From an uncultured archaeon (lineage in GTDB: Archaea > Asgardarchaeota > Thorarchaeia > Thorarchaeales > Thorarchaeaceae), in assembly GCA_964458565.1 (NCBI GenBank), contig CAYWJO010000005.1, positions 20,375-84,374 on the forward strand: 64,000 bases of DNA, in the 5' to 3' direction. The position numbers and the translations under genes are program-made. Positions 5,101 to 36,200 of the stretch are shown here, piece after piece. Under the pieces are notes generated by a model, which was not told where the DNA came from, searched no databases, and worked only from the letters and a program-made list of their open reading frames with translations. Position 1 is the stretch's first letter; each line of letters opens with the position of its first letter.

Positions 5101-5228
5101 ATGTGATATTCATCCTAGAGATTTCATGAATTAGATATACGATTTCGCCACCTCTTCTTCTAATTACTAGTTCATATAATCGATTGTATCAATTGTAATA
5201 CACTTGTTGGTTCCGTAGAACCACTCAT

Positions 5229-15965: not shown

Positions 15966-16128
15966 GATATCACTTTGAGGTATGTTGATAAAGATTACCG
16001 AGTAGACATACTAGTAGGAAGTTGCTGAGGGAATCATAATCTGTTGTATTACGATTATTACTTAAGTAAGGAGAACCTCAAAGCAATCCTTAAAACAATT
16101 GAAACAAATTGAACGTTAGGGTGCGAAG

Positions 16129-17348: not shown

Positions 17349-18194
17349 GTGAGTGACATGAGATATCGTGAATTCCTTAGGAAGAGTTTGGAATCAAATA
17401 TTTCTGATACTTCATTGTTACCTTCTGGTTTTCATTTCGTAGGACATGTTGCTCTATTACATCTAAAAAAAGAAATCATGAAGTATGCCGAAATTATTGG
17501 TCAGCTAACATTGGAATTTGATAAGCGAATCAAATCGGTTGCTGTAAGGTCTGGACCTACAATAGGAGTAAAACGACTACCTAGTTATTCATTAGTTGCT
17601 GGAGATAAAAAGACTGAAACGATTCATATTGAAAACGGTATTCGATTCAAGCTTGATCCGTTGAATGTGACATTTTCTGGGGGAAATAAAGAAGAAAGAA
17701 TACGGATGCCTTCCAGAATAAAGACGGGTGAAGTAATAGTAGATATGTTTGCTTGTGTTGGTCAGTTTGCACTTCATTTGGCAAAGAAGAAGACTGCAAA
17801 AGTATATGCAATTGAACTCAATTCTATTGCCTATGACTATCTATTAGAAAATATTACTTTGAATCATTTGGATAATTATGTACAGGCAATCAATGGTGAT
17901 TGTAGAGAAGTATACCCACGTGCTATTGCAGATAGAATTGTGATGGGATATCTTCATGATACTTTGTCGTATTTTCCTTATGCATTGAAGTCATTGAAGA
18001 AGTGTGGGGGTTTTGTGCATATGCATCTTGCAGGATTAGAGAAAGATATACCTAATTATTGTAATACAATTAATACTATTTGCAATTCTGAAGGATTCAA
18101 TGTGATTTCTGATGAAACAAGAAAGATAAAGCACTACTCGCCGCGCATTGATCATTTCGTATTTGATATTGAAGTTCAGTCAGCCATTCAATAA
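17349..18194 (+). CDS. Trm5/Taw2-family SAM-dependent tRNA transferase
   Basis: HIENGIRFKLD, FSGGNKEER, VDMFACVGQF and ADRIVMGY. Confidence 0.88.
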   Translation: MSDMRYREFLRKSLESNISDTSLLPSGFHFVGHVALLHLKKEIMKYAEIIGQLTLEFDKRIKSVAVRSGPTIGVKRLPSYSLVAGDKKTETIHIENGIRFKLDPLNVTFSGGNKEERIRMPSRIKTGEVIVDMFACVGQFALHLAKKKTAKVYAIELNSIAYDYLLENITLNHLDNYVQAINGDCREVYPRAIADRIVMGYLHDTLSYFPYALKSLKKCGGFVHMHLAGLEKDIPNYCNTINTICNSEGFNVISDETRKIKHYSPRIDHFVFDIEVQSAIQ

Positions 18195-18277
18195 TGTGCT
18201 GAAACAAAACCATTTTATCTCAGACTTCATGGATTGTATCGAATCACTTCCCGAGTCGGATTATGTGAGGAATCAAT

Positions 18278-18664
18278 ATGGGTTTCAGAGGCCTATCACC
18301 AAAACAGATTTCACGAATGATGAAAAAGATGGGAATAGAACAGGATGACCTCGAAGGTGTGACAGAGGTTGTCATTCGTTTCAAGGATAAAGAGTGGCTG
18401 ATTGGAAATCCACAAGTGGGAGTGATTAAACAATCGGGTAGCGAGTCGTATCAAATTTCAGGTAGCAAGATTGAAAGAGCATTAACGACTAGTGGGGAAT
18501 CAGTAGTTATTGAAGAAACTCAACCTGCAGTAATCGAGATACCAATAGAAGATGCAGCTCTTGTCGCAAGTCAAGCTGGGGTTGATATTGAAACTGCAAA
18601 AGAAGCTTTGAGGGAAACTGAAGGTGATTTGGCAGCAGCTATTCTAAAACTGAAACGTAGTTAA
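18278..18664 (+). CDS. nac: Nascent polypeptide-associated complex protein
   Basis: MMKKMGI...V.EVVI...SYQISG NAC domain plus UBA-like GDLAAAILKL. Confidence 0.93.
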   Translation: MGFRGLSPKQISRMMKKMGIEQDDLEGVTEVVIRFKDKEWLIGNPQVGVIKQSGSESYQISGSKIERALTTSGESVVIEETQPAVIEIPIEDAALVASQAGVDIETAKEALRETEGDLAAAILKLKRS

Positions 18665-18671
18665 GTACCAA

Positions 18672-19298
18672 TTATGATGTAATTCGATCTCGAATCATCT
18701 TAGTTCTGAAGAAATCTTCGCGTTCTCTTTCCTCAAGAGCTAGCTTGACAAAATGAGCTGTTGCATCAAGACGAGGAATAACAACAGTTTCGAGCGCTGA
18801 AACGCGACGCTTTGTACGCTCTATTTCTAATGCTAGACGCTTCACTGTAGATTCTATCTCTGCAAGTTTAACTACAGCTTTCAATGCTTCTTGGAATTTA
18901 CTTGACATGAGATCTAAACGAGCACTTGAATCTGTTAGAGAATAGGGAAGATCTGGAGTGGTTTGATTCACTGACAATACAGGGACTCTTACTCCCATCA
19001 TAGTTCTTGTTGATATACTCAACTCGGATTTCATGTTGCTAGCATTGGCAAATTCAACAACTCTTGATGGACCCATAATCATTTTTGCTTGAGTAAGAGC
19101 TGTGAATGCAGCAGAAAGTGCTGATTCAACAGTCTGTCTTGTTTCCTTGATTTCTGCTATTGCATTGAAGAATTCCATAATTAGAGAGTCCCTTTTTTCT
19201 TTCAGAAGATTGTGACCTCGTTCGGCAAGTCGCATTCTATTCTTTAATCGTAGAAGTTCCATACGTGTAGTTTTGGTTCCAGGAAGAATCTTACTCAT
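18672..19298 (-). CDS. atpD: A/V-type ATP synthase subunit D
   Basis: TRMELLRLK...GHNLLKEKRD...TKRRVSALE...LEEREREDFFR. Confidence 0.95.
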   Translation of the reverse strand: MSKILPGTKTTRMELLRLKNRMRLAERGHNLLKEKRDSLIMEFFNAIAEIKETRQTVESALSAAFTALTQAKMIMGPSRVVEFANASNMKSELSISTRTMMGVRVPVLSVNQTTPDLPYSLTDSSARLDLMSSKFQEALKAVVKLAEIESTVKRLALEIERTKRRVSALETVVIPRLDATAHFVKLALEEREREDFFRTKMIRDRITS

Positions 19299-19383
19299 TT
19301 GTCATCACCTACAGCATTGATGATATCCATGGGGACCAACCCAGAGAGTATATCATTCGCACTAAAACTGTTGTGTTCCGAGC

Positions 19384-19698
19384 TCATGTAAATGTAAGAG
19401 CGAGTGCACAGATTACAACACCTAGCGTGCAGATGAACAACCACTCTCTCAAATAGGTTCGTACTCTCTTGGGGCGTTCTTGGATTCGGCCAGTAGTTAT
19501 GAGAGTCATAATGAATAAGAAAAGAAAAGCAAAGGGAAGTGCTATTGTTCTACTCACCACTATAGAAGCATCCACTATCAAAATGATACCCATCAGTCCT
19601 CCGAATATGAGAAAACAGAGAATCATAATTGCATTCAAAACATGTCGTATTCTATCAACATTCATTTCATTCACCATAGTGGGAGATGTAGTAATCAT
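19384..19698 (-). CDS. Small hypothetical membrane protein (3 TM)
   Basis: Three hydrophobic segments. Confidence 0.6.
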   Translation of the reverse strand: MITTSPTMVNEMNVDRIRHVLNAIMILCFLIFGGLMGIILIVDASIVVSRTIALPFAFLFLFIMTLITTGRIQERPKRVRTYLREWLFICTLGVVICALALTFT

Positions 19699-19872
19699 CT
19701 AGTCGAAGGTTCAGCCATTATATTCTCTTGAAAAAGCTTGTGTCTCAAAAATAGATGATTAGGTTCTATGACTTCATGTCACCATACGATTTAAAACGGG
19801 ATAATAGTCTAATAATTGTATTACAAGAACTACTTGTGATACGATAAAGTAACGTGTGGCTGTGATGATTTC

Positions 19873-20847
19873 ATGACAATTGCCATTCATGAGAGTGCAT
19901 TGATACGTCATTTCAATACTAGAAAAGAAACGCTGCGAGCTTGGGAAGAAAAAATCGGTGCGAGGTTTTCTCCATTCAGAGGATATAAAATGCCGGATAG
20001 TCGTTTGTATTGCGAACATCCTGATTTTCTTGATAGTATTGTTGACCTAATAATAACAAATGAGAGACATATTTTCCTTAGGGGTCCAGTAGGATCTGGA
20101 AAGAGTACTTTGATGCTTCTTGCACTTCGGGACCTGCCTACATTAGCTGATCGGCGAGGAAATAAGTTTGTTACAGGATATGTTGGGATGACCGGTCTCT
20201 ATGAGAAACAAATGTCTGCTGCCATTGCAGATTCCTTGAGAATCAAATATCGTCGATCATGGGAGTCTAGTCAAATTATAGAAGCTGTTGCACAAGAAAG
20301 TCTTAGGAGATACGTCGAAGAGAAGAGTCGTACGGCACTCTTCATCGAAGATGTTGCTGACAATCAAGAAGCTGCATTTCACAAACTACGGTATCTTGCT
20401 GATTTACCAACTGAAGAAATGATTGATAGTCATGGTCGAATATTGGATGAACCAATAGTCACACTGATTATGAGTGGAACTACAATGTATTGGAACGCTA
20501 TGCTTAGTTTTCTACCACAGATTGCAGATCGAACTGAGCCTCTGGATGTACCGCCCTTTGACCTTTTGAAAGCAAAGGAGTTCATAGGACGCCGACTCTA
20601 TTATGCGCGTGGTAAAATTGATAGTTTCGACTCTGATAATTATGAATTGTATCCATTTCATGACGAAGCTGTAGAGATAATCAATAATTCTGCAGAAGGG
20701 AATCCACGAGACATTCGAATGTTGGCAAGAGGATGCCAACAAGTTGCAGCTGAGAACTTCAAGAGATCTGGATTTCCAGAAATTACAGCAGAAATATCTA
20801 AACTGGTTGCTGATGCTTATGCCACATTACTGAAGGAGGTTAAATAA
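19873..20847 (+). CDS. AAA+ ATPase (ExeA/TniB/initiator-like, not ParA)
   Basis: N-terminal SPF, Walker A GPVGSGKS, Walker B ALFIED, sensor-1 IMSGT, IADR and GNPRDI lid. Confidence 0.8.
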   Translation: MTIAIHESALIRHFNTRKETLRAWEEKIGARFSPFRGYKMPDSRLYCEHPDFLDSIVDLIITNERHIFLRGPVGSGKSTLMLLALRDLPTLADRRGNKFVTGYVGMTGLYEKQMSAAIADSLRIKYRRSWESSQIIEAVAQESLRRYVEEKSRTALFIEDVADNQEAAFHKLRYLADLPTEEMIDSHGRILDEPIVTLIMSGTTMYWNAMLSFLPQIADRTEPLDVPPFDLLKAKEFIGRRLYYARGKIDSFDSDNYELYPFHDEAVEIINNSAEGNPRDIRMLARGCQQVAAENFKRSGFPEITAEISKLVADAYATLLKEVK

Positions 20848-20848
20848 T

Positions 20849-21148
20849 ATGAGCTTGCTAGGGAAATATAGACGCGAAGAAAGAGATAGGGATGAAGAAG
20901 AGGAGGGTACGACATCTCAAAGTGACTCACAGCCTAAACCAGAACGTACTCAAACCCTTGTTGCAGTTCCTAATAAAGAACGAAAGAGTCCAATAATGAG
21001 TTTCTCAGTTGCTTCAGATCTAAGACTGTGTTTGCAGGCAATTAGAAACAAACGTGCAATTAATCTAAGCATGTGGGTTGAAAGAGTCTTGCGAGAGGCA
21101 GTTATACAGGAATTTCCAAATATTGCAGAAGATCTTCTTGAATCCTAG
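20849..21148 (+). CDS. Ribbon-helix-helix DNA-binding protein with a disordered N-terminal tail
   Basis: Charged, flexible N-terminus, then IMSFSV strand, SDLRLCLQAI helix and INLSMWVERVLRE helix; starts 1 nt after the ATPase stop with a GGAGG RBS. Confidence 0.7.
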   Translation: MSLLGKYRREERDRDEEEEGTTSQSDSQPKPERTQTLVAVPNKERKSPIMSFSVASDLRLCLQAIRNKRAINLSMWVERVLREAVIQEFPNIAEDLLES

Positions 21149-21163
21149 GATGTAATACATTTA

Positions 21164-22567
21164 TTACAAATCAGAGTTTCCTCTGGATTGAAGAAATTCG
21201 GAATATTCTGCAGTTTTAGACATACAGAGAGCTGCAATATACGGGTCATCATAGCAAGGGATACGGTTCATCTCCAGCAGATCCTTACCAGGTTTACCTA
21301 CTTCACCAGCAAGCCATACTCCTACAACTGGTTTATTGACTCCTGAAGTACGAATACCTTCAAGTGTCCCAGCTGCATGTTCAGTCTGGGTCATTCCAGC
21401 AAACGTTGGAACTCCACATATTACTAACAACATGTCAACATTTTCGTCCTTGAGAAGGAGTTCTGTAGCAATTTTATATTCCCTACGACCACCACTGGCA
21501 ACTACATCGATTGGGTTTTCGACAGCAGCCATTGAAGGTAATAGTTGTCGAAGTTCTTTAGTTGTGTTTTCATTTAGTCGAGATATTTTTAGATCAAAAT
21601 CGGAGGCAGCATCCGCAGCAAGTACGCCAGCACCACCTGTATTACTTATAATACCAATATTACGACCACTCGGTAAAGGTTGATAATCGAATAGCTTACA
21701 TATTTCAAGTAGTGAATCAAATGTAGGAGCTGTAACACATCTAGTTTGTTGAATAACTCCATTGAACACCTCAATAGAACCTGCGAGAGATCCGGTATGT
21801 GATTTCGTTGCGCGACTACCAGCACTACTTCGACCTCCCTTTAGAACCACAACTGGTTTTCTTGATGTAGCATTCTTTAGTGATTTGAAGAATGCTCGTC
21901 CGTGATCGACACCCTCAACATAAACTGCAATGACAGAGGATTTTTCATCAATGGCGAAGTAGTCAATAATATCGGAAAAGTTTACATCCACTGCGTTTCC
22001 AATACTAGCGAACTTGCTTATGCCAATACGTTTTGCTCGAGTGTTATAGATAGTCATACCACCAAGAGCGCCGCTCTGGGAAACAAATGCGATGTTTCCA
22101 CGTTCAGGCATCATAGTAAATGTTCCATTGAATAAGCGGCTGTTTGAAACCCCTACACAATTAGGTCCAATTATTCGTACTCCATACTCTTTAGCTATTT
22201 GCAATAATTGAGCTTCAAGCTGAGATCCGTGTACCCCAGTTTCACTAAATCCTCCGGATACGATGATTGCATTTCTTGCTCCAGCTTTGTGAATTTGGGG
22301 AATCAAATCTATACAATATTTAGCTGCTACTGCTACTATTACGAGATCAACAGAAGAAGGTAGCTCCTGTAGGCTCGGATACGCTTTCACACCCATTACT
22401 TGGTCTCTGTTCCGTGTGATTGGATAGACTTCAATCTCAGATGTAAGTAGATTCATCAAAATTGAATTGCCGAGTTTTCTATAGTCTGAAGATGCACCAA
22501 CTAAGGCAATACTTTTCGGATTGAAGAAGAGGTCGATAGTTGCCTCATCATTCAATGAGTTAGACAT
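21164..22567 (-). CDS. acdA: ADP-forming acetate/acyl-CoA ligase alpha subunit
   Basis: PKSIALVGAS, RIIGPNCVG, SQSGALG, SHTGSLAG and NPIDV. Confidence 0.9.
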   Translation of the reverse strand: MSNSLNDEATIDLFFNPKSIALVGASSDYRKLGNSILMNLLTSEIEVYPITRNRDQVMGVKAYPSLQELPSSVDLVIVAVAAKYCIDLIPQIHKAGARNAIIVSGGFSETGVHGSQLEAQLLQIAKEYGVRIIGPNCVGVSNSRLFNGTFTMMPERGNIAFVSQSGALGGMTIYNTRAKRIGISKFASIGNAVDVNFSDIIDYFAIDEKSSVIAVYVEGVDHGRAFFKSLKNATSRKPVVVLKGGRSSAGSRATKSHTGSLAGSIEVFNGVIQQTRCVTAPTFDSLLEICKLFDYQPLPSGRNIGIISNTGGAGVLAADAASDFDLKISRLNENTTKELRQLLPSMAAVENPIDVVASGGRREYKIATELLLKDENVDMLLVICGVPTFAGMTQTEHAAGTLEGIRTSGVNKPVVGVWLAGEVGKPGKDLLEMNRIPCYDDPYIAALCMSKTAEYSEFLQSRGNSDL

Positions 22568-22624
22568 GATTGAATGGCAAATCTATACGAATTTATGTCT
22601 ACCTAGATATGCATGTTACTTGTA

Positions 22625-23881
22625 TTATTTGTAATACATTTCGGTGTTACTCTTCTTGGCTAATTTGCGATATAATTTCTTCAGTTGTGCATAGTTTGTG
22701 CAATTGAGTTGAAGATAATCTTTGATGGCATATTCGAATTGCGGATTTCGTTTATGGATATTTTCGATAGCTTCTATTGCTGCATTTACAATTTCTTTGT
22801 TTCTTTTATTACAAATGAGCTCGATGAGTGTTTCAACAGATGCTATATGATAAAAATTACCAAGCGCGGATATAGATGGTGTGACTATTCGAGGATTGTC
22901 TGTATTAATTATGGATTGGAGTAAAATAATAGATTTCAGTGATCTTATTGAAACCAGATTATCAATATGTTTGACAAGTAATCTGAATTTCTCTGCTGTT
23001 TGGTCTGCATTGTATTCATCGAGTATGCATTCTAATAATATACTGAAGTAAGAAACCGCATGTCGGCTGCCGAGGTCACGAAGATTAGAGATATCACCAG
23101 CAATCATGGATGTTAACAGATTATGATATAACGGATGATGAGGATTCTTGATCTTGTGTATGGCTTTGGCTGATTTGGATATAATTTGATTCTTTATTGT
23201 ATCTGATACGGGTATTACAGATAATACCATCTCCATTTCCTGTTCATCAATCAATAATTTAGTCAAGTCTAGTTTTGATAATGCATGCAATCCGTATTCG
23301 GAATGCCATAAGCCTTCAACTGATACTATTTGATTATCTAAAAGAACAGCTGCTCCAATTAATTCTTCTTTACGGATATGTTCTATTTGAATATGCATTT
23401 CTTTTGGAATTATCAATGAGCTTTCAGTGACATCTAAAAAAAATGTATCATGATTAGTAATTTGATCACGAAGAACTGGTAAGATATATTCTAGTAAAGA
23501 GTTCGCTGAATCCGTAAATGATGTCTTAGATTCAAGGAATCCAAGAATATCTTGGGTGGAAATATTAGTTGGTTCGAGTCCCTTACAACCTAGAACTTCA
23601 AATAATACTTCGCGATATTTGATAGGTTCGATTTTTTTCTTTGGAGCATCTATTCCAATTGGGTATGAATAATGAGCATCTAATGATTTCTTAAGATAAT
23701 TTACAGTTGAGTTCCAACCGACTGTTTGGTCAAGTGTCACTAATATATCTTGAAAATCTTCACATCTCCGGTCGCCAATTGATTGAACGATATCAAGAAT
23801 TATATCTCTATCAGTTGCTTCTTGAATTCTCTGTTTGAGAGCTGTAAGAATCCTTGATTTTCCATTATTTTTATCATCCAC
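22625..23881 (-). CDS. Hypothetical protein with C-terminal HEAT-like repeats
   Basis: PSISALGNF...VETLIELI...AAIEAIENI. Confidence 0.6.
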   Translation of the reverse strand: MDDKNNGKSRILTALKQRIQEATDRDIILDIVQSIGDRRCEDFQDILVTLDQTVGWNSTVNYLKKSLDAHYSYPIGIDAPKKKIEPIKYREVLFEVLGCKGLEPTNISTQDILGFLESKTSFTDSANSLLEYILPVLRDQITNHDTFFLDVTESSLIIPKEMHIQIEHIRKEELIGAAVLLDNQIVSVEGLWHSEYGLHALSKLDLTKLLIDEQEMEMVLSVIPVSDTIKNQIISKSAKAIHKIKNPHHPLYHNLLTSMIAGDISNLRDLGSRHAVSYFSILLECILDEYNADQTAEKFRLLVKHIDNLVSIRSLKSIILLQSIINTDNPRIVTPSISALGNFYHIASVETLIELICNKRNKEIVNAAIEAIENIHKRNPQFEYAIKDYLQLNCTNYAQLKKLYRKLAKKSNTEMYYK

Positions 23882-24060
23882 TTTATGACACCCAACTAGA
23901 TACTGAATGAGTAGATTGGATTTTAATGAGTCTATTTACAATCTATGATACTATTACTTGTAATACAATTATTAGTATCTTACCTAATAATGTTTCAATT
24001 ACTCAAAGAAACTTCGTTCTAAGAATAGAACTATGTATAGATTGTGTCTTAGTAAATATG

Positions 24061-24243
24061 AGTATGTTGTGTCATACTGGACCCGTCTGGAATCGAAGTT
24101 CGTTATACGGAGAACTTCAAATGTCCACATTGGCATCTCTATCTCCTCGAAAAAACCTCAAAGATGATCGAATGTAGGTACGCAGACGGGAAGGATTCCT
24201 ATGGATTCCTCAAAGTTGGCGCAACATGCTCGAGCCGTTTTTT
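24061..24243. ncRNA. Candidate structured non-coding element
   Basis: CCCGTCTG/CAGACGGG closes arms GAAGTTC/GAACTTC and ACATT-CATCT/AGATG-AATGT; further hairpins and a T-run follow. Confidence 0.4.
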
Positions 24244-24284
24244 CTTATTCATCCCTATTATCCCCTTTATCTTCTGATTTTAGT

Positions 24285-24818
24285 CTAAGATTTTTGTTTT
24301 GCAATCTCTCCCTTGAGAACTAATGGAGAATCAAGCTCTTCAAGAAGAGACAGGATGAGACGCTCTGCTGATTGGTAGCTCTCAACATCCTCACTAGTTA
24401 ATTCTATCTTTCCAGATAGTATCTCTCTAATTCTACGATACCCACCTATTCTTGAAGCAATCTCCTCAAATGGACGAAAAACAGCTAAATCAAAGAGACC
24501 TAGGTATGCAAGTAGAAGAAGTGTGTAAATTGATTTGGTAATGTTGGTACGAGCTTGTTTCAATGTTCGATTAAAGGAGCCCCTGGATACTCCTTTCTTT
24601 TTGGTTCCTTTGTGACCACGAAGAGAAGCTTTTGTTTCATATGCAATATGCTCATCTACACCATCCTCTAGTACTAGGTCAATAAGTAGTGTTTCAATTT
24701 GTGTTTCAGTCAGTGTTGATCTTCCAAGTAAAATTTGAAGTATCGGTTCTTTCATAACCCTACGAGCATTGATGATTAATTTCTCCATACCATCTTTCTT
24801 CCTTTTATTTGTAGACAT
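24285..24818 (-). CDS. Conserved archaeal hypothetical protein, possibly HTH DNA-binding
   Basis: STLTETQIETL...VSRGSFNRTLKQAR..I.KSIYTLLLLAYLG. Confidence 0.65.
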   Translation of the reverse strand: MSTNKRKKDGMEKLIINARRVMKEPILQILLGRSTLTETQIETLLIDLVLEDGVDEHIAYETKASLRGHKGTKKKGVSRGSFNRTLKQARTNITKSIYTLLLLAYLGLFDLAVFRPFEEIASRIGGYRRIREILSGKIELTSEDVESYQSAERLILSLLEELDSPLVLKGEIAKQKS

Positions 24819-25014
24819 TCATTCTTTCATCCTTGAAATGTGAGTTCTTGTGGAGTGTAAGTAATATAGCCTCATATTCCTTCTTTTTACCTTTCAGGAA
24901 TTATGAAGTTTTTTTGAAACACTACTAATCTGTGTTCTTCTACGGATACAAAAGTGTATACGTAAAGACTATTATGTGCTTCGTGAAAAATAGATAGTAA
25001 TATTTGTAATACAA

Positions 25015-25458
25015 TCAAGCATTAAAAGTATCATTCAAGCTACTTCTGATTGGAAGTTTCCATTCTGAACCAGGAGGTACACTAACAAAGCCTAATATTA
25101 GATTACCACGGATCTCATCATATTTGAATATACCAAAGATGAATCGTTCATTTTTTGCAGCCCATTCAATTCTACCAAGAGCAAGATAGTGATTGAAAAC
25201 ATCTCTACACTGTTTTCGCACTGTGGCAAACAAATTTCGAAATCGTTTCCTTTGTGATGGTCGTATATCCCAACGTTCCAGAATGAATCGATTTGCCAGA
25301 CTATTGCTAGAAATCAATATTGATCTACGTCTCTCATTTGGTGCGTTTATTGCCCTTTCAAGAGTCTGTCTTAAACAATTAGGTACCGTAGCTAAGACGG
25401 AAGGACTTGTCTTTGGTTCATAAACTGTTGACCCTGATAATACGTCGAATCGTCTCAA
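25015..25458 (-). CDS. Hypothetical basic protein
   Basis: 147-aa Arg-rich ORF filling the gap between neighbours. Confidence 0.55.
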   Translation of the reverse strand: MRRFDVLSGSTVYEPKTSPSVLATVPNCLRQTLERAINAPNERRRSILISSNSLANRFILERWDIRPSQRKRFRNLFATVRKQCRDVFNHYLALGRIEWAAKNERFIFGIFKYDEIRGNLILGFVSVPPGSEWKLPIRSSLNDTFNA

Positions 25459-25615
25459 TTCCCATCGATATTCTGTATGGATGGACCTTTAAGAGGTACT
25501 ATAAATGTTTGATAACCATTGTATTACATATATTATTTCTAATAATGGAATAGTTGTACTACTTCACTGCATTAATATCGGAAACAAGTCCCTTCATGGA
25601 AAGGAGAATTACTCT

Positions 25616-27952
25616 TTGATCACCAAGGCAACGATTCATATTACTGGAATTGTACAAGGAGTAGGATTCAGACCTTTCATCTATCGTGAAGCAATATTAT
25701 TGAAGCTAACAGGTTATGTATTAAATCTCGGTGATGCGGGTGTTAGAATAGTAGTTGAAGGGGAGAAATCAAGAATTAATAAGTTAATTGAGATAATAAA
25801 AGCTAAACCCCCATCCATTTCACGCATAGATTCGGTTTCTATAAGCTGGGATGAATCAGAAGGCAAATTTGATACATTCCTCATCTCTAAGTCTTCACCT
25901 ATCAGAGAGAATGGAGCTGTCACTGAGATTCCACCGGATATTGCAATTTGTGATGATTGTGTTGAAGATTTGTTTTCTCCAAAATCTCGTTGGTATTTGT
26001 ATCCATTCACCTCATGTGCAGCATGTGGACCTAGGTTCTCTACAATAACAGATTTACCTTATGACAGACCAAATACGACAATGACAGATTTTCCTCTTTG
26101 TAATATATGTAATACAGGTTATACAAATCCTTTTGATAGAAGATATCATGCACAGACAACTGCATGTTTTACATGTGGACCTGAATACAAGTTAATGAAT
26201 AATGATGGAGAAATTATAGAAACAGAGGATGTTGTACTTACATCAACAAAACTTCTCAAAGAGAGGTCTATAATTGCAGTTCAAGGAATTGCTGGAACTC
26301 ATCTTGTAACAATTACTTCACAACCGGATCCAATTTTAGAGCTCCGTAGAAGAAAGAGACGAGACAAACGACCATTCGCAGTTATGGTCAAAGACCTATT
26401 AGCAACCTATCAAATTTCAAAACCAACAGATTTTGAAACACAGCTAATTACTTCATGGCGAAGACCAATAGTCTTGATTAGAAAGAAGTATAATTCGAAT
26501 GCAAATTTCGAACATGAGTTGATATCTCCGGGTTTGGATACCATAGGAGTCATGTTACCCTATGCACCTATCCATCATCTGTTTTTCAATCATCTTGATG
26601 AAATTGCACTATTGATGACAAGTGCTAATCCAACTGGGTTACCGATGTTTATAGAACCAAAAACCATAATATCAAAACTACAATCAGTTGCAGATTACTT
26701 TCTCATTCATAATAGAAGGATACATCAAAGAGCTGATGATTCAGTATTAAAAATCGTACATGAAGACAATCCCGTTTTTCTTCGTAGGGCACGTGGATAT
26801 GTTCCCGATCCACTGAAAGTCAAAAGTCCTAATGACAAAATTACAATTCTGGGTCTTGGACCTGAAGAGAAAGTTACAGGTGCCATTTTGAAATCGGATT
26901 ATATTTATCAAACTCAACACATTGGAGATGCTGATTGTTTAGAAACTGCTGAATTTCTCTTGGACGCTTCTATTCATCTGATGGATTTAGTGGGAGTATC
27001 CAATCTTGATGCGATTGCTTGTGATTTGCATCCTGAATTTATTACAACAAAACTTGGTAGAAAAATAGCAGATGATAGAGATATTCCTCTGATTAGGGTT
27101 CAGCATCATCATGCACATCTTGCATCTTTAATGGGTGAACATAGAATTGATAATAATACTAGTATTACTTGTATTACAGTCGATGGTTTTGGATATGGTG
27201 ATGATGGTACTGCATGGGGAGGTGAAATTCTAACAGGGAATCTATCTGAATACACAAAGAAAGGCGGCATAAAACCTGTGATACTTCCAGGTGGAGATAT
27301 GACAGCTAGATATGCTTCTAGGTCTCTCTTTGGACTGCTTAGATCTGGGATGACTACTTCGGATATTCATAAGATATTGAAAGGACATAATGTTGCACTT
27401 AGACAGCCAGCTAGTATTGAGAATCTATTATTTCTAGAGGAATCAATTAAGAAAGGAATCAATACCATGACAAGCTCTAGCGCGGGCAGGTTTCTTGATG
27501 CAGTATCTTTAGCTCTTGGAGTATGTTCAGAAAATTCCTATGATGGAGAATGTCCAATGAAGCTTGAGTCAATTGCAAAAGAAAGCGATTCAAACGTGAA
27601 GATTGAATATAGTATTGAAAGGAATTTGAGTTTCATTGATACTTCTAAATTCTTGAGAGAATTATTAGAATTAAAGAATAATGGAATGCCGAAGAAATAT
27701 ATCGCATATATTGCACAATGGGAACTTGGATCTGCATTAGCAGAAATTGCATGTGATGTATCTATTAGCGAAGGCATAGAGTATGTTGGTATTTCTGGAG
27801 GAGTTGCTTTGAATCGGATAATTACTTCTGCTGTAATAAAAAAGGTATTAGCTTACAATCTCACACCATTAATACATAGAAATATTCCTCCGGGAGATGG
27901 AGGTATTTCTTCAGGACAGGTTTTGGTAGCATCTGCCAAACTATTAGAATAG
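25616..27952 (+). CDS. hypF: Carbamoyltransferase HypF
   Basis: GIVQGVGFRPF, CxxC Zn fingers, RRARGYVP, QHHHAH and PPGDGGISSGQ; TTG start after GGAG. Confidence 0.96.
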   Translation: MITKATIHITGIVQGVGFRPFIYREAILLKLTGYVLNLGDAGVRIVVEGEKSRINKLIEIIKAKPPSISRIDSVSISWDESEGKFDTFLISKSSPIRENGAVTEIPPDIAICDDCVEDLFSPKSRWYLYPFTSCAACGPRFSTITDLPYDRPNTTMTDFPLCNICNTGYTNPFDRRYHAQTTACFTCGPEYKLMNNDGEIIETEDVVLTSTKLLKERSIIAVQGIAGTHLVTITSQPDPILELRRRKRRDKRPFAVMVKDLLATYQISKPTDFETQLITSWRRPIVLIRKKYNSNANFEHELISPGLDTIGVMLPYAPIHHLFFNHLDEIALLMTSANPTGLPMFIEPKTIISKLQSVADYFLIHNRRIHQRADDSVLKIVHEDNPVFLRRARGYVPDPLKVKSPNDKITILGLGPEEKVTGAILKSDYIYQTQHIGDADCLETAEFLLDASIHLMDLVGVSNLDAIACDLHPEFITTKLGRKIADDRDIPLIRVQHHHAHLASLMGEHRIDNNTSITCITVDGFGYGDDGTAWGGEILTGNLSEYTKKGGIKPVILPGGDMTARYASRSLFGLLRSGMTTSDIHKILKGHNVALRQPASIENLLFLEESIKKGINTMTSSSAGRFLDAVSLALGVCSENSYDGECPMKLESIAKESDSNVKIEYSIERNLSFIDTSKFLRELLELKNNGMPKKYIAYIAQWELGSALAEIACDVSISEGIEYVGISGGVALNRIITSAVIKKVLAYNLTPLIHRNIPPGDGGISSGQVLVASAKLLE

Positions 27953-27977
27953 CAATTGTAATATATGTAATACAATA

Positions 27978-28592
27978 TCATGTAAGTAGTTTTTGGATAG
28001 CTTGGAATCCAAGCTCAACTGCAGTGATATTGATTGTTTCAAATTTGCTAGAGAAAGACATACGAACAGCAGCTAATACTGATTCTTTCTTGATTGGGGT
28101 GAGGTTAGTACCTAATATTGCTCCTAGCATGACCATATTCATTGAACGAGAACTTCCGGCTTCCTTAGCAAGCTCCATTGCATCAATTTCCAGAATCTTA
28201 TCTGTGAATCTCCTAATTTGAGATATGATTTCTCCATGATCAGGATATTCTGTTTGGCCCATGGATACAGCTACAGGGTATTGAATATGTGAACTCATGA
28301 CAACATATCCATCATTACTAACTGCATGAATTTCCCTCAGAGTTTCAAGGGGTTCGAATCCAACAATGAGATTAGCTGTTCCCGAATCAATTATTGGTCC
28401 ATACACATTTTCACCAATACGTACTGTACATACAACATGACCGCCTCTTTGAGCCATCCCATGAATCTCACCTACTCGTACGTTTAAATTGTCCGCTAGT
28501 GCAGCCTTTGCCAAAATTTCTGCAAGTGTTAGTACTCCCTGACCACCAACACCAGCAATGAGAATATCGCTATTATTTGTATTACAATTCAT
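27978..28592 (-). CDS. iorB: Indolepyruvate:ferredoxin oxidoreductase beta subunit
   Basis: AGVGGQG, EIHGMAQRGGHV and NMVMLGA; GGAGG RBS before the ATG at 28592. Confidence 0.93.
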   Translation of the reverse strand: MNCNTNNSDILIAGVGGQGVLTLAEILAKAALADNLNVRVGEIHGMAQRGGHVVCTVRIGENVYGPIIDSGTANLIVGFEPLETLREIHAVSNDGYVVMSSHIQYPVAVSMGQTEYPDHGEIISQIRRFTDKILEIDAMELAKEAGSSRSMNMVMLGAILGTNLTPIKKESVLAAVRMSFSSKFETINITAVELGFQAIQKLLT

Positions 28593-28594
28593 AT

Positions 28595-30484
28595 TTATTC
28601 CTCCTGTCTTATTGCACCTTGTGGACATACTGATACACATGTACCACATAGATTACACAGAGTTTCGTCAATTACTGCTTTTTCTGTTAAAGAATCAAAA
28701 TACATAGCTGGACAAGAGAGACGATTCAGGCAGCGTTTACATGAGTTACATGTTTCAGAATCCACATAATATCGTGGAGGGAATTCGCCAGTACGACGCC
28801 TATCGGCAGCTGTCAGTAGAGCACAAGGTGCTTTTGAAACCATGACAGCAGGTTCATTATTTTCGCGGACCCACTTTACCATCTTGCGAACTTCAGCGAC
28901 TAAGTCAGCCATTAGTTCAAAAGGATTCATCTCTATAACATATTTGACCCCTAATCCCTTGCATACTTCTACAATATCAAGAGGCTCTACTTGTTCTTGC
29001 ATTCCAGTGATTCCAGTGCCAGGATGTGGTTGATGTCCAGTCATTGCAGTAGTTCTATTATCTAGGACAACTAATGAAACTGGATGTTTGTTGTATACTG
29101 CGTTTACTATTCCAGGGAGTGCGGATGCGAAGAAGGTACTATCACCAATTGAGGCTACTATATCTTGATTTGTTACACGTGCAAGACCACATGCTGTAGT
29201 AATTGATGATCCCATGTCAAAGAGGATATCTGCAGTTTCAAGAGGTGGTGCAATGCTGAGAGTATAACAACCAATATCTGAGGGATAAATTGCTTTTCCT
29301 CTTGTTGCAGTCTTGATTGCATAATAGGTTGCTCTATGGGGACAACCTGGACATAGAAGTGGTGGTCGAGGAGGAAGTTCTGGAATTTGTTTGAATCTAT
29401 CATCTATATCCTTCCAATTAATAATTGTATTACAATTAATAATATTACAGATAGCTTCAATTACGATTCGTGGACTGTACTCGAAAGTTCGTGGAAATAG
29501 TCCTTGTTCCTTTCCAAATATCTCAATGGACAGACCATTTAATTGTGCAAGTCGCCGAGTGTGTGTTTCTAAGAAAGGTTCGAGCTCTTCGACAATAATG
29601 ATCTTATTGTGGTTTTTCATGAAATTAAGAATCATTTTCTCAGGTATTGGATGAGTAAGACCAAGCTTTAGGATACTTGCATCTAGTTCTAAACAAGATA
29701 ATGCTTCACGAACATAGTTGAAGGATACACCACTGGTAATGATTCCAAGATTACCCTTACCTTCGATGAAATTCATTGATGAAGTTTCTGAAAATTCTCT
29801 TACTTTTTCAATCTGTTTCAAAAGAAGAGGATGACGTTTACGTGCGACAGATGGAATGGGTACAAAACGGAATGGATCTTTTTCAAAGTGTACTGTTTCT
29901 GGGCGATTTCTAATAGGACCAAGTTCGACGGCAGCTCGGGTATGATTGACTCGAGTTGTTGTTCTAAACAAGACTGGAAGTTCAAATTTCTCCGATATCT
30001 CGTATGCTTCTAGAAGTAATGATTTTGCTTCAGCAGGATCTGCAGGTTCTATCATTGGCATATTTCCCATCAGAGCATAATAACGACTATCGTTTTCGTT
30101 TTGTGAGCTCCACATACTTGGATCATCAGCTACGACAATTACCATGCCGGCTCTGACTCCAACATATGACAGTGAGAAGAAAGGATCTGCGGCAACATTG
30201 AGACCAGGTCCTTTACATACCATCATTGATCTAGCACCAGCAACTGCTACAGCTCCTGCTACTTCTAGAGCAACCTTCTCGTTTGTACTAAATTCGAAAT
30301 AGAAATTGGGAATGTGTGGTGCCATAAATGTCAGATTGTTTCCAATTTCACTACTTGGAGTACCTGGATAAAGAGCTACTAGTCTAACTCCAGCTTCCAA
30401 TACGCCTCGTGCGATAGCTTCATTGGCAAGAAGGAGAATGTTCTTTCCAACAGAGTCCTCGAGCAATTCTTTAGGTTTGGTCAA
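28595..30484 (-). CDS. iorA: Indolepyruvate:ferredoxin oxidoreductase alpha subunit
   Basis: YPGTPSSE, NEKVALE, RPPLLCPGCPHR, DIGCY, TAMTGHQ and a C-terminal ferredoxin domain. Confidence 0.95.
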   Translation of the reverse strand: MTKPKELLEDSVGKNILLLANEAIARGVLEAGVRLVALYPGTPSSEIGNNLTFMAPHIPNFYFEFSTNEKVALEVAGAVAVAGARSMMVCKGPGLNVAADPFFSLSYVGVRAGMVIVVADDPSMWSSQNENDSRYYALMGNMPMIEPADPAEAKSLLLEAYEISEKFELPVLFRTTTRVNHTRAAVELGPIRNRPETVHFEKDPFRFVPIPSVARKRHPLLLKQIEKVREFSETSSMNFIEGKGNLGIITSGVSFNYVREALSCLELDASILKLGLTHPIPEKMILNFMKNHNKIIIVEELEPFLETHTRRLAQLNGLSIEIFGKEQGLFPRTFEYSPRIVIEAICNIINCNTIINWKDIDDRFKQIPELPPRPPLLCPGCPHRATYYAIKTATRGKAIYPSDIGCYTLSIAPPLETADILFDMGSSITTACGLARVTNQDIVASIGDSTFFASALPGIVNAVYNKHPVSLVVLDNRTTAMTGHQPHPGTGITGMQEQVEPLDIVEVCKGLGVKYVIEMNPFELMADLVAEVRKMVKWVRENNEPAVMVSKAPCALLTAADRRRTGEFPPRYYVDSETCNSCKRCLNRLSCPAMYFDSLTEKAVIDETLCNLCGTCVSVCPQGAIRQEE

Positions 30485-30595
30485 TCCTGAACCTCCGTAG
30501 ACCTTTAGTCTACATCTTGTGTTTTGACAATCCATAATAGGTATCAGTCTTACGGTAGGAGCTAAGAGCACTTTGTAATACTCGTATTATATTTT

Positions 30596-30983
30596 GAACA
30601 CGTGTTCCAAGTTTTTCTTGGACAAGACCCCCATATTTCCACTCGAATATTAATGGGAAGACAGAATATAAAATAACCAAAAGTATATATAATGTTTTTA
30701 GCAGCCTATATTTATCTACATTTTTATCTACTATATATGATCGCCAAATCTTCTACATTTTCATCTATGTTCCAATGGAAATTAAGGGGTGTCACAGTTT
30801 TCAAGTACTACTAACCTTTATTTCCTCTGTTTCTTATGGAACATATGGAAACGATTGTTAACCTCCTATATAGGGACTTTGCAACAAACTTAATCCATCT
30901 TTCATAGCAGATAATGAATTAGAACACGTGTTCTAGAACCCCCTTATTTCCTATGGAAGTATATATTGGAACACATGTTCCAA
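30596..30983. other. Putative replication origin (ORB cluster with AT-rich segments)
   Basis: ORB-like elements: 30628-30647(-) TTCGAGTGGAAATATGGGGG, 30769-30789(+) GTTCCAATGGAAATTAAGGGG and 30939-30958(-) TTCCATAGGAAATAAGGGGG. Confidence 0.75.
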
Positions 30984-30985
30984 AT

Positions 30986-31270
30986 TCATACTTCATTTAC
31001 AGTAAAAATCTTTGTTTTCAAAATATCAGTATACGATTCGAATAAATCATCAAAAATCGATCTACAATCAGGTGGAACGAGTATTGCTGAATCTGCAACC
31101 GCTTCAGCACCCACACATTCATCCAATAGTCCAACCTTTCTCTTTTCTTTAAGTCCTGTTCTTGTCTTCCAGGAATATGTGAATCCATAGAGCTCCTTTG
31201 TGAATGCAACTCGTCTTGCATTACTCTTTCGAGCATTTTTGCAATCATAGATATAGAGAATCTTTCCCAA
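30986..31270 (-). CDS. Small protein with a possible Cas2/VapD-like ferredoxin fold
   Basis: ILYIYD N-terminal strand, F.KELYG, GLL and SAILVP; GGTG RBS. Confidence 0.55.
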   Translation of the reverse strand: MGKILYIYDCKNARKSNARRVAFTKELYGFTYSWKTRTGLKEKRKVGLLDECVGAEAVADSAILVPPDCRSIFDDLFESYTDILKTKIFTVNEV

Positions 31271-31408
31271 TAACTACACCTAATCACTAGAACACATGTT
31301 CTCAATTTTAGTCCGAGTAACACAAATCCAGATAGAAAGGTTAAAGCGTAGGTGACTCGCGAGTCGGTCTCACTGCAAGGAGCAGCTGGATTCATAGGTG
31401 GAATAGCG

Positions 31409-34073: not shown

Positions 34074-34715
34074 CTATTGTTCACCTACACGAAGTTGTAT
34101 TGCAGCTAGTATCTCTTCAGATCTTATAGTTTCTTTTTGAACTTCTGAGAGTTCTGTCTTCAAACGATAGGTGTATCCAGTACGCTTTCCATATCTTTCA
34201 AGAGGTCCCTTACCATTATTCCACATTCGTGCTAGATAAGTCGAAGCGGTACTCTTTGGAAGATCCTCGACAAATGTAGTTTCATAAATCTCAGTAACAT
34301 CTAATGAAGAGAATTTACCATGCTTGAATGATGCATAGATTACTATCCGCATCTTTTCGTAGCTACTCATGGAATCAAATTGGATTTCTTCAATCTCGGG
34401 TTCAATAGGTTCCTCTTCAATCTCATCAAAGACATATCCAGTACTAGTTTCCAAAAACACTCTAAATTTAGCAAACATCTCCTCAACACTACTACTCTTT
34501 ACTTGAAAACTAGACTCCTCTCCTGTTGATTCATCCGATACAAGAATTTTGAAATCAAATGGGGATTCAGTAAGAGCCAAAATACGACGAAAGCGTGTCA
34601 ATGCTTCACCTGGATTAACATAACGACATTGAAAAATCTCTTGAGAGCCTGGGCCCGATCTGTATGTAAATTCATATACATAGTTTGTACGATAATCATT
34701 TTCCAAGCTTCTCAC
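34074..34715 (-). CDS. Winged-helix DNA-binding protein
   Basis: C-terminal FSSLDVTEIYE...LPKSTASTYLARM...LERYG...YTYRL. Confidence 0.7.
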   Translation of the reverse strand: MRSLENDYRTNYVYEFTYRSGPGSQEIFQCRYVNPGEALTRFRRILALTESPFDFKILVSDESTGEESSFQVKSSSVEEMFAKFRVFLETSTGYVFDEIEEEPIEPEIEEIQFDSMSSYEKMRIVIYASFKHGKFSSLDVTEIYETTFVEDLPKSTASTYLARMWNNGKGPLERYGKRTGYTYRLKTELSEVQKETIRSEEILAAIQLRVGEQ

Positions 34716-34740: not shown

Positions 34741-35178
34741 TTATTCACATCTACCTATTCTCACATCTAAATAAGTGTGAGTATGTGAATTACTAATACC
34801 TAGATAAGAACTACATAATGTGTCTGTAAGCCCTAGAGACACACCTAATCCATTTCACTTGTGATAAGCCGCATAGAACACTAATATCAAATTAATAAGG
34901 CCTATTAGAGCTCTAAATCAAAAAATAATACCTTTTTCCTTCTTTATCACTATTCACAAAATTATATGGTTTGTGAATAGCATGATACGCATATCATAAG
35001 TCTTTTTGCTTAGTTCCAATGGAAACGAAGGGGTGTCGCTATTCACATAGGCTAGCAAATCTATAGTATCTTCTTTCCCGTCAAAAAGCAGATTATAAAC
35101 TTCTTTTTAATAATCGATTCACAATTATGGCGCCATTCACTTCCTAAATATGTGAACTATTGTCAACAACGTGAATAG
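34741..35178. repeat. (CT)ATTCAC iteron-like repeats around a single ORB
   Basis: About 8-10 ATTCAC/GTGAAT copies, including a perfect 11-bp inverted pair at 34950-34960/34970-34980; ORB GTTCCAATGGAAACGAAGGGG at 35013-35033. Confidence 0.75.
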
Positions 35179-35189
35179 TCTATAATCAT

Positions 35190-36200
35190 CTATATTAATG
35201 GCAACATGAAATCATCTGGTCTTTCTCCAAGGATTAGATGTTTGTAAACATCACCAGCTCTCAAAGTAACCTCCTCTAACCGACCACATACTTCTACATT
35301 CATTCCACTCATTACATGTTCACCATATCGACCACGATAACTAACAATCTCTCTAAGGTCATTAATCTCATTACATTCTACCTGATATCGACTAGGCGTG
35401 TATATTGATTCAGAATCATCAACTATATGACAAACAACAGTACTAATTCCCATATTTTTGTATATACAATCCCCATATTGCCATTTCAAATCAGAAGGTA
35501 ATTTTACTAGTCTGATGAAGAAATCTATTGAATGATACAAGCCTTGAAGTTTTTTTTCTTTTTCTATTTTCATAAGGGTATCAAGATGCTGATTTTTTTT
35601 ACCCCATCGGAAAACTGTATGTTGTTTCAAAGTTTCTTCAGAGTATGACTTAACTTGATTTTCAGCACCCTTAATTTCTGACATAGCTTGAAATAAATTT
35701 CTACCTGCCTTAGATCCATATATTACCAAATCTATATCAGATTCATCATTACTCAAACCCACAAGCTGAGAACCAGTAACACCAATAGACTCCCATGATA
35801 TTCCACTATATTCCACTAAAATCTCTGCTAATTCAACAGTTGATTTCCGAATACTATTGAGATGTCCATTTCCATCTCTAAGATAACGTAATGCATCTAT
35901 CGGGTCATATATGATAGAAATCGACTCATCTGGTACTGCTTGCATATCGCGTCCTCGAATATCATCAAACCATATGTATTGCGGAGCATATTCTCGAAGA
36001 AATATTTCACGATCCGTCAGATATGGAAGTTTTCTGTAATTATCACCCCTTGTACTTTTACGATCTCCATCTTCATACGGGACATACCTCAAGTATGCTA
36101 TGATTCGATTCTTGGGATGTAATACACCTTTGACTTCGAAAATGTAGTTTTCATCAGTTTCAAGGAAATATCCTTCAATAGGATTCATCAATGTCATCAC
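35190..36200 (-). CDS. Predicted nucleotidyltransferase (COG1665-like)
   Basis: VKGVLHP...AYLRYVP, GVTGS..VGL..DESDIDLVIYG and SYRGRY. Confidence 0.8.
   Translation of the reverse strand: MMTLMNPIEGYFLETDENYIFEVKGVLHPKNRIIAYLRYVPYEDGDRKSTRGDNYRKLPYLTDREIFLREYAPQYIWFDDIRGRDMQAVPDESISIIYDPIDALRYLRDGNGHLNSIRKSTVELAEILVEYSGISWESIGVTGSQLVGLSNDESDIDLVIYGSKAGRNLFQAMSEIKGAENQVKSYSEETLKQHTVFRWGKKNQHLDTLMKIEKEKKLQGLYHSIDFFIRLVKLPSDLKWQYGDCIYKNMGISTVVCHIVDDSESIYTPSRYQVECNEINDLREIVSYRGRYGEHVMSGMNVEVCGRLEEVTLRAGDVYKHLILGERPDDFMLPLI

Follow-up and report, generated by a model that had tools for sequence, protein, structure and literature searches.

Partition cassettes of type Ib, such as ParF-ParG-parH of TP228 and delta-omega of pSM19035, are plasmid-borne and bicistronic, with the gene of a ParA-type ATPase followed by that of a small ribbon-helix-helix (RHH) centromere binder carrying a flexible N-terminal tail; tandem short boxes, gathered in a single compact centromere, serve both as the operon's own operator and as the centromere. 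In bacterial ParABS, e.g. 4-10 parS sites are located near oriC, often inside genes and rare elsewhere, adjoining the binder operon. Cooperative RHH dimers use short palindromes repeated in phase, the textbook case being MetJ, a bacterial metabolic repressor, where each of the in-phase 8-bp metboxes is bound by one dimer and neighbouring dimers contact each other cooperatively. To our knowledge, the organisation and segregation of archaeal, and especially Asgard, chromosomes are largely unknown, with SegAB of the Sulfolobales being the only partly characterised system. Here, we analyse a stretch of 64,000 nt from an uncultured archaeon of the Thorarchaeaceae (Asgardarchaeota), referred to as the window (GenBank assembly GCA_964458565.1, contig CAYWJO010000005.1, positions 20,375 to 84,374 of the forward strand), in which an array of TGTAWTACA palindromes lies beside a replication origin and encloses an operon encoding an ATPase and a putative RHH protein.

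Two described archaeal systems come closest to this locus, one in layout and one in the DNA word. In SegAB-segS of the Sulfolobales, an NTPase is combined with a binder that has an RHH core, and tandem 7-bp repeats are present directly upstream of the operon near oriC2, with partial sites elsewhere (PMC12139799, PMC8682754). The aCcr1-box of the Sulfolobales is a 9-bp palindrome with a GTAWTAC core, which is read by an RHH cell-cycle repressor and often occurs in one or two copies (PMC9976878, PMC9976892). A literature search revealed no paper with TGTAWTACA in a relevant context and none on an origin-side array in Asgard archaea; in the searched literature, the array system is undescribed.

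The palindrome field beside the replication origin

The motif TGTAWTACA, a 9-bp palindrome, was found in 15 exact copies in the window, compared with an expectation of 0.66 from 100 shuffles that preserve dinucleotides, the highest of which gave 5. Twelve of these are located at 18060-29434, spaced 515-1757 bp apart (mean 1033), and the remaining three at 5194, 36118 and 62560. In the whole assembly (3,727,908 bp in 93 contigs, 40.9% GC), 29 copies were counted, 19 of them on the 142-kb array contig. The 12 copies of the array fall into 11.4 kb, corresponding to 0.3% of the genome, against 0.089 expected from the genome rate (Poisson P = 4.6e-22), revealing the motif density to be far from similar genome-wide. 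On the array contig outside the dense field, seven copies versus 0.36 expected (P = 1.2e-7) form a sparse halo, and the remaining 3.59 Mb beyond this contig contain ten copies, which is about chance level. One-mismatch boxes were also enriched in the field (12 versus 3.4 expected), and several were at a distance of precisely 9 bp to an exact box. The array is a real, genome-unique and evolutionarily conserved palindrome field beside the replication origin. Its features are given below in window coordinates, with the number of family genomes, out of 15, in which the respective slot is filled.

16045-16053: near-match box TGTATTACG with a single mismatch; marks the outer limit of the field, in the gap upstream of PAN
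18060-18068: box 1; inside TYW2 at amino acid 238 of 281, frame 0, C-N-T (peptide YCNT); slot filled in 4/15
19817-19843: triple box resembling an operator, TGTATTACA-AGAACTACT-TGTGATACG; 30-56 nt ahead of the start codon of the ATPase gene; slot filled in 15/15
19873-20847, + strand: predicted ORC/Cdc6-like AAA+ ATPase (P0001), 324 amino acids, without winged helix
20849-21148, + strand: tailed RHH-like protein (P0002), 99 amino acids, candidate box reader
21151-21168: box 3 with a second box in phase (TGTAATACA TTTATTACA); separates the stop codons of the convergent RHH and acetyl-CoA synthetase (ACS) genes; slot filled in 8/15
22630-22638: box 4; overlaps the final codons (MYYK-stop) of the HEAT-repeat gene, 63 nt upstream of the ACS start
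23959-23967: box 5; 400-bp gap between the HEAT-repeat gene and open reading frame (ORF) o24285, within a near-perfect 33-bp palindrome; slot filled in 11/15
25005-25013: box 6; between o24285 and ORF o25015; slot filled in 6/15
25520-25528: box 7; between the divergent o25015 and hypF, within the 5' part by which the listed hypF ORF is over-extended
26099-26125: box 8 with flanking phased boxes (TGTAATATA TGTAATACA GGTTATACA); second HypF zinc finger, C-N-I-C-N-T-G-Y-T; slot filled in 10/15
27170-27178: box 9; in HypF, I-T-C-I-T; slot filled in 12/15
27957-27974: box 10 with phased upstream box (TGTAATATA TGTAATACA); between the convergent ends of hypF and iorB
28578-28586: box 11; iorB codons 2-4 (M-N-C-N-T-N), just after AGGAGG and the iorA stop
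29426-29434: box 12; inside iorA, C-N-I-I-N-C-N-T; slot filled in 3/15
30574-30582: near-match box TGTAATACT, one mismatch, followed by phased CGTATTATA; edge of the origin recognition box (ORB) cluster
30590-31310: ORB-type origin, consisting of GTTCCAATGGAAATTAAGGGGTG (30769) and GAACACRTGTTC palindromes with G-strings
36118-36126: halo box; opposite side of the origin from the array
Further halo boxes: window 5194 and 62560; contig (G000:C5) positions 10057, 90042, 95506 and 140646

The halo stretches over tens of kb on both sides of the origin; a similar halo was seen in one relative (G008), and it is barely visible in another (G009).

The array ends at the ORB cluster, which follows immediately to its right (30.59-31.31 kb), and the cumulative GC skew of the contig peaks in the 45-55 kb bin containing this cluster. 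These results bear out the first-pass annotation of the window, made from the letters alone, which had reported at least 12 exact copies in 11.4 kb beside the origin with three elsewhere, a spacing of about 0.5-1.8 kb, near-matches at 16045 and 30574 and boxes between convergent genes; the peptides quoted there were also correct (YCNT in TYW2, MYYK-stop in the HEAT-repeat protein, CNICNT and ITCIT in HypF, MNCNTN in IorB and CNIINCNT in IorA). Where it had placed boxes inside coding sequences (CDSs), this holds for the three to four boxes deep in CDSs, and the other eight were located in gaps or a few codons from a gene end. Its further argument, that promoter operators would not be distributed in this way, applies to about seven of the 12 boxes, which lie in CDSs or between convergent stops, and does not apply to the remaining boxes at promoter-like distances; those at 22630, 23959, 25005 and 25520 are 60-190 nt upstream of start codons, and the start of iorB is overlapped by that at 28578. 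In its listed form, the hypF ORF starts too early (region 25505-25610 of the window): in every relative, homology sets in only from about residue 35, so that the box at 25520 probably belongs to the promoter gap between the two divergent genes rather than to the hypF CDS.

For comparison across the family, 40 kb around hypF was taken from 14 further genomes representing 13 other genera, with even the nearest genomes belonging to other genera (HypF 52-58% identical). In all 14, the gene order from PAN to the ORBs was conserved and TGTAWTACA was clustered in the matching interval on the same side of the ORBs; the same word also recurs in another family. For three relatives with complete listings, 14 of 22, 14 of 22 and 8 of 14 genome-wide copies fall inside 10.5-13.9 kb. 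The array size ranged from two to three boxes (G023, G039, G006 and G013) to 15 (G009 and G008), and some genomes carry boxes inside the ORB gap itself. Since slot occupancy extends from 15/15 down to many further slots that are lineage-specific, some sites are ancient and others turn over, with the overall density being maintained. Whole-genome totals of the word in 20 relatives were at or below those of a control word; this measure was discarded as misleading, since the positions place most copies in one array, where totals alone cannot test clustering.

Selection on the DNA word was quantified in a hypF codon alignment of the 15 genomes as the identity of synonymous codons between pairs sharing a residue, using 411 five-codon windows. 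Overall identity was 0.405, with a window median of 0.39 and a 95th percentile of 0.57. The ten highest of the 411 windows (0.74-0.94) were all on two box sites, the top peak being the site of box 8 (around amino acid 200) and the second that of box 9 (around amino acid 560). At the first site, the canonical HypF motif C-x-x-C-x-x-E-Y is kept in four outgroup lineages, and the family has C-N-T-G-Y-T instead, spelling TGTAATACA GGTTATACA; at the second site, C-I-A-S-D-G became C-I-T-A-D-G. From these replacements in the aligned sequences, the HypF protein is therefore judged to be altered to carry the DNA word. Six of the seven boxes in ORFs were found in frame 0, encoding Cys-Asn/Ile-Thr (18060, 26108, 27170, 28578, 29426 and also 25520). 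The coding frame constrains the embedding of the word, because frame 1 would create a TAA stop when the box centre is A, which is avoided by frame 0. We conclude that the boxes are almost certainly protein-binding sites under selection.

The architecture of the sites was analysed for 125 sites from the 15 genomes. Box-like similarity around the exact box peaked at exactly -9/+9 bp (z ~16) and -18/+18 bp (z ~5), with nothing between, and the -9 and +9 positions were equal, revealing no left/right bias of the accessory boxes. A polarity suggested by the window itself, where 10 of the 12 boxes had an origin-distal accessory box, was rejected on this larger sample. Upstream of the ATPase gene, the arrangement TGTAWTACA-nnnACTACT-TGTGATACA is conserved, with three boxes in phase, the last of which is separated from the start codon by about 30 nt. 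By analogy, this geometry of accessory boxes at +-9 and +-18 bp appears to be that of tandem RHH operators.

The genes around the array encode PAN, TYW2, NAC, A-ATPase subunit D, an acetyl-CoA synthetase of the ADP-forming type, the HEAT-repeat protein, HypF and IorBA, all of which belong to archaeal housekeeping, and close homologues in the databases bear Thorarchaeota names. The HEAT-repeat gene (window 22625-23881), located in the middle of the array, is fast-evolving, with only 28-34% identity between genera compared with 50-85% for the other genes of the block, and two genomes (G039 and G006) have it inverted or moved with respect to o24285. In the origin, the GAACACRTGTTC palindromes are interleaved with the ORB elements (window 30596-30613, 30969-30986 and 31290-31307, also at ~30920). 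The word ACACGTGTTC was among the most enriched 10-mers (four to six copies) at the matching place in at least eight relatives and is thus a second conserved origin word. A second ORB-like element at window 35013-35037 is 92% identical to that at 30769-30793 and follows 4.2 kb after the main cluster, on its right side; it is adjoined by an uncharacterised gene (34074-34715) that is 65-74% identical across the family. An Rfam scan of 15-36 kb of the window yielded no known RNA family, and a reading of the boxes at the RNA level was set aside as unlikely, the boxes being present on either coding strand and between convergent genes.

The ATPase/RHH operon and its counterparts in other Asgard families

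The ATPase and RHH genes form a tightly coupled pair inside the array. The ATPase is 76-85% identical across the genera of the family, far above the neighbouring genes, and was found in 40 of the 43 family genomes searched, with a length of 324 amino acids in most relatives listed. In databases, it is named hypothetical or automatically 'ExeA', and its Pfam matches are restricted to AAA_22, AAA_16 and NB-ARC. A structure model (pLDDT 87.7) gave 1w5t, 1w5s, 1fnn, 2qby, ORC and Cdc6 as top Foldseek matches (E 3e-9 to 1e-7, TM 0.5-0.58), followed by TnsC. The sequence contains a Walker A motif GPVGSGKST, an invariant box VII-like arginine before LDVPPF and a sensor-2-like GNPRDIR (G-x-x-R). There is no winged helix, the 324-residue model ending with lid helices, and a scan of the contig with the Orc1/Cdc6 profile TIGR02928 did not detect the ATPase locus at E<=0.001. 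On the basis of the model, the ATPase is predicted to have an initiator-clade AAA+ fold closest to archaeal Orc1/Cdc6 and eukaryotic ORC; it would belong to none of the known partition families, and its fold is not that of the deviant-Walker ATPase ParA. Two canonical Orc1/Cdc6 genes are present on the contig, 50-70 kb from the ORB cluster (G000:C5:100219-101310 and C5:120478-121593; TIGR02928, above cut-off). The origin-adjacent spot is occupied by the ORC-like ATPase without winged helix and not by these canonical genes.

For the RHH protein of 99 amino acids, an N-terminal helix (residues 3-16) with the conserved sequence MSLLGKYRKE, a disordered, variable and charged linker (17-46) and an RHH-like core (47-88) were modelled. 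The fold neighbours of the core are almost all RHH DNA binders, namely Arc, SvtR, CopG, AmrZ, NikR, SegB-DNA, MatP and ParB of plasmid pCXC100. Searches in Pfam and NCBIfam revealed no ParB domain and, apart from an RHH_1 match in one orthologue, nothing else, and a sequence-profile search of the PDB gave no match to a solved structure.

The ATPase extends into other families of the phylum at lower identity. In f27, where the ATPase is 44% identical and the putative DNA-reading strand of the RHH protein is P-V-I-S-A-T-V, TGTAWTACA occurs seven times within 3 kb centred on the operon. In f2 (ATPase 66% identical), two TGTAWTACA boxes were found, one of them upstream of the operon. In f19 and f7, the ATPase is about 30-39% identical and the small ORF next to its gene encodes an RHH-like C-terminus whose strand differs (N-F-N-V-R); here, TGTAWTACA is absent and GATATC boxes at a phase of ~13 bp surround the ATPase gene. 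In a closed 3.58-Mb genome of f19, GATATC-N6-8-GATATC occurs ten times, nine of these within 11.4 kb around the ATPase gene (control 0), and an f7 genome carries a 2-kb version of the GATATC field with boxes also inside the ATPase CDS. Across four lineages, the operon is located 0.4-10 kb from ORB-type words. A de novo word search around the ATPase in G108 (f7) and G014 (f3) yielded no clear repeat field, and the field is thus not demonstrable in every lineage. As far as the sequences indicate, the operon travels with ORB-type words and with a field of phased palindromes that is unique in the genome, the word changing along with the putative DNA-reading strand. The GATATC loci of the other Asgard families map to L025/L026 (G075:C1:1636680-1648120) and L027/L028 (G018:C1, ~940300-942200), with three GATATC boxes being inside the ATPase coding sequence in G018.

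The encoded RHH protein is likely to be the reader of the boxes, mainly because the box word co-varies with the type of RHH strand.

Possible roles of the array

The array is most likely a cooperative field of binding sites for the RHH protein and the ATPase. As its function, we tentatively favour, at somewhat less than an even chance, that of a centromere-like or origin-organising nucleoprotein domain. The 9-bp TGTAWTACA box would be sized for one RHH dimer, and the weaker boxes at 9 and 18 bp would take further dimers. The triple box at the promoter of the ATPase/RHH operon may autoregulate the operon; the other sites, which extend across 11 kb as far as the ORB origin at a density of roughly one per kb, would collect the RHH protein and, through it, the ORC/Cdc6-like ATPase. 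Together, the two proteins would assemble a nucleoprotein domain with many sites alongside the origin, which would most likely serve to mark and handle newly replicated origin DNA, be it by organising, pairing, anchoring or segregating it. Such a role would be analogous to that of parS/ParB or segS/SegB, with a different motor family. The centromere-like reading is favoured because the field, which is unique in the genome, reaches the origin, boxes persist where operators are impossible, and the layout resembles that of partition cassettes.

Several observations weigh against this reading. We know of no DNA-segregation motor that is an AAA+ protein of the initiator clade, and a tblastn search of the ATPase against 72,556 plasmid records (PLSDB) gave no match at E<=1e-3, thus providing no precedent from plasmid partition. 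The only universal slot (15/15) is the operator-like triple box upstream of the operon, about five of the 12 array boxes are at promoter-like distances, and arrays of only two to three boxes in some genomes imply that the system can do without a large field. The beta-alpha-alpha (strand-helix-helix) core of the RHH protein was modelled with moderate confidence (pLDDT 71); none of its fold matches is individually significant (SegB-DNA, 7dv2, at E = 2.6), and Pfam RHH_1 gave one match (E 0.003) among 15 orthologues. The co-variation of word and strand comprises two classes only. Finally, the only published reader of a GTAWTAC core is the RHH repressor aCcr1, which supports the notion that an RHH protein reads the word and also feeds the explanations by a regulator.

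The first-pass annotation had called the locus a chromosome-organising site array, without tying it to its probable binder. Both outcomes that it had listed as refuting, a comparable motif density across the genome and the lack of such a cluster in close relatives, were contradicted by the genome-wide counts and the 14 further family genomes. As an array of binding sites beside the origin, it is well supported; the functional label goes beyond this, with an ATPase that is ORC/Cdc6-like rather than ParA-like, a universal slot resembling an operator and the core of the aCcr1-box, and a centromere-like or chromosome-organising role is plausible from the sequence. The wider proposal that Asgard archaea possess an undescribed machine for origin handling or segregation, in which a box-bound RHH adaptor recruits an ORC/Cdc6-like AAA+ protein as motor or organiser, is possible, if on balance doubtful.

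Among the alternatives, a role in the control of initiation survives best, though it is in itself unlikely. Here, the RHH adaptor would replace the winged helix, and the ATPase would load or block MCM, sequester Orc1/Cdc6 or set firing, in a manner like DnaA-box clusters or iteron handcuffing. The fold closest to Orc1/Cdc6 and ORC with its Walker A, box VII-like arginine and G-x-x-R sensor 2 is consistent with this, as are the proximity of the operon to ORB-type words in four lineages and the boxes inside the ORB gap. The sites, however, are spread over 11 kb through genes and not concentrated at a DNA-unwinding element, and two canonical Orc1/Cdc6 genes are present elsewhere on the contig.

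That the field acts as a titration sink is rather unlikely. According to this explanation, the RHH protein would act chiefly as a transcription factor of the aCcr1-like repressor kind, and the origin-proximal field, doubling directly after initiation, would soak up its free molecules, thereby timing expression to the start of S-phase by a logic like that of datA and DnaA. The box core GTAWTAC equals that of the aCcr1-box of the Sulfolobales RHH cell-cycle repressor, the field reaches up to the origin, the operon seems to regulate itself and the many sites unable to regulate a promoter would suit decoys. Against this stand the absence of detectable sequence similarity to aCcr1-type proteins in the phage and virus records searched and the few candidate target boxes beyond the origin region (10 in 3.59 Mb, about chance); titration would also leave no role for the highly conserved ATPase, and some genera keep only two to three boxes.

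A local regulon, in which the boxes are operators or roadblocks and the RHH protein represses ATPase/RHH, ACS, the HEAT-repeat gene, o24285, o25015, hypF and iorBA, is improbable. It would account for the universal slot upstream of the operon, the four boxes 60-190 nt upstream of starts and the box at 28578 overlapping the iorB start, and the published readers of the GTAWTAC core are repressors. Yet the boxes deep in hypF (10/15 and 12/15), between convergent stops (8/15), in iorA and in TYW2 occupy non-operator positions and nevertheless show the strongest selection; moreover, the neighbours are housekeeping genes of unrelated function, individual slots come and go between genera at a maintained density, and the clustering at the origin recurs with a different word in other lineages.

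The absence of any function has a negligible chance: although an AT-rich word in an AT-rich region (35-40% GC) might suggest a chance or compositional cluster, debris of a mobile element or a restriction-modification word, the value of P~5e-22 versus the genome rate, the failure of all 100 dinucleotide shuffles to reach the observed count, the conservation of positions across genera whose proteins are only ~55% identical, the frozen synonymous sites and the make-up of the block from syntenic housekeeping genes instead of a mobile element led us to reject the compositional, mobile-element and restriction-modification readings on shuffling, conservation and synteny.

The proposed functions are not mutually exclusive, because a type Ib centromere doubles as an operator.

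The locus provides a concrete candidate with three components, namely a 9-bp word, a small binder and a conserved ATPase, all at the replication origin, and selection on the DNA word has been strong enough to rewrite a conserved zinc-finger motif of HypF. If the ATPase is the working partner, the ORC/Cdc6 family would be extended beyond initiation in prokaryotes. If the wider proposal of an undescribed machine is true, this would be the first partition-like system on an initiator-clade AAA+ protein and could represent, in archaea, a forerunner of what eukaryotic ORC does outside replication in organising chromatin. On a conservative reading, the locus is a clear natural case of coding sequence constrained by an overlapping DNA-binding code, and the box array is a practical marker for locating origins in Thorarchaeota assemblies.

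Comparison with described systems

Among AAA+ systems, those of the TnsC/TniQ type with an adaptor resemble the locus in that a separate sequence-specific adaptor would likewise target the AAA+ protein, with the difference that the ATPase locus is not part of a transposon. With Orc1/Cdc6, the ATPase would share the initiator-clade AAA+ fold, and its gene adjoins the origin as cdc6 genes usually do; in contrast to Orc1/Cdc6, it has no winged-helix domain, and the boxes are not ORBs. MetJ is comparable in its in-phase tandem short palindromes (8 bp there, 9 bp here) and differs in having neither an array nor a link to an origin. ParABS is similar in layout only, with several palindromes near the origin that are rare elsewhere; the word is unrelated to parS, and neither a helix-turn-helix CTPase clamp like ParB nor a Walker ATPase like ParA is present in the Thorarchaeota operon.

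The resemblance to ParG of type Ib cassettes is at the level of the model, which predicts an RHH-like core with a disordered N-terminal stretch; the motor is of the ParA type there and a putative AAA+ protein here. Closest in the DNA word is the aCcr1-box, which has the same GTA-W-TAC core as the Thorarchaeota boxes (motif printed in PMC9976878). It differs in that aCcr1 is a stand-alone RHH protein without an ATPase partner and that its boxes are at promoters scattered over the Sulfolobales genome, placed between TATA and start codon, whereas those described here are clustered in 0.3% of the genome. A tblastn search of the RHH core against 50,697 phage and virus records revealed no match to the aCcr1 homologues of archaeal viruses and only two chance-level matches to Serratia phages, in a domain so short that divergence could hide homology.

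Closest in layout is SegAB-segS. It differs in its ParA-like SegA, compared with the predicted initiator-clade AAA+ protein here, and in its DNA word, and there is no detectable sequence homology between the two systems. Both are located on an archaeal chromosome and have an operon in which the NTPase gene is followed by that of a small binder, putative in the Thorarchaeota case, with tandem repeats upstream of the operon near an origin. The tandem sites of segS have their counterpart in the triple 9-bp box 30-56 nt upstream of the ATPase start in all 15 genomes, about 10 kb from the ORBs, and the gene of the putative RHH binder occupies the position of segB, downstream of the ATPase gene as in segAB.

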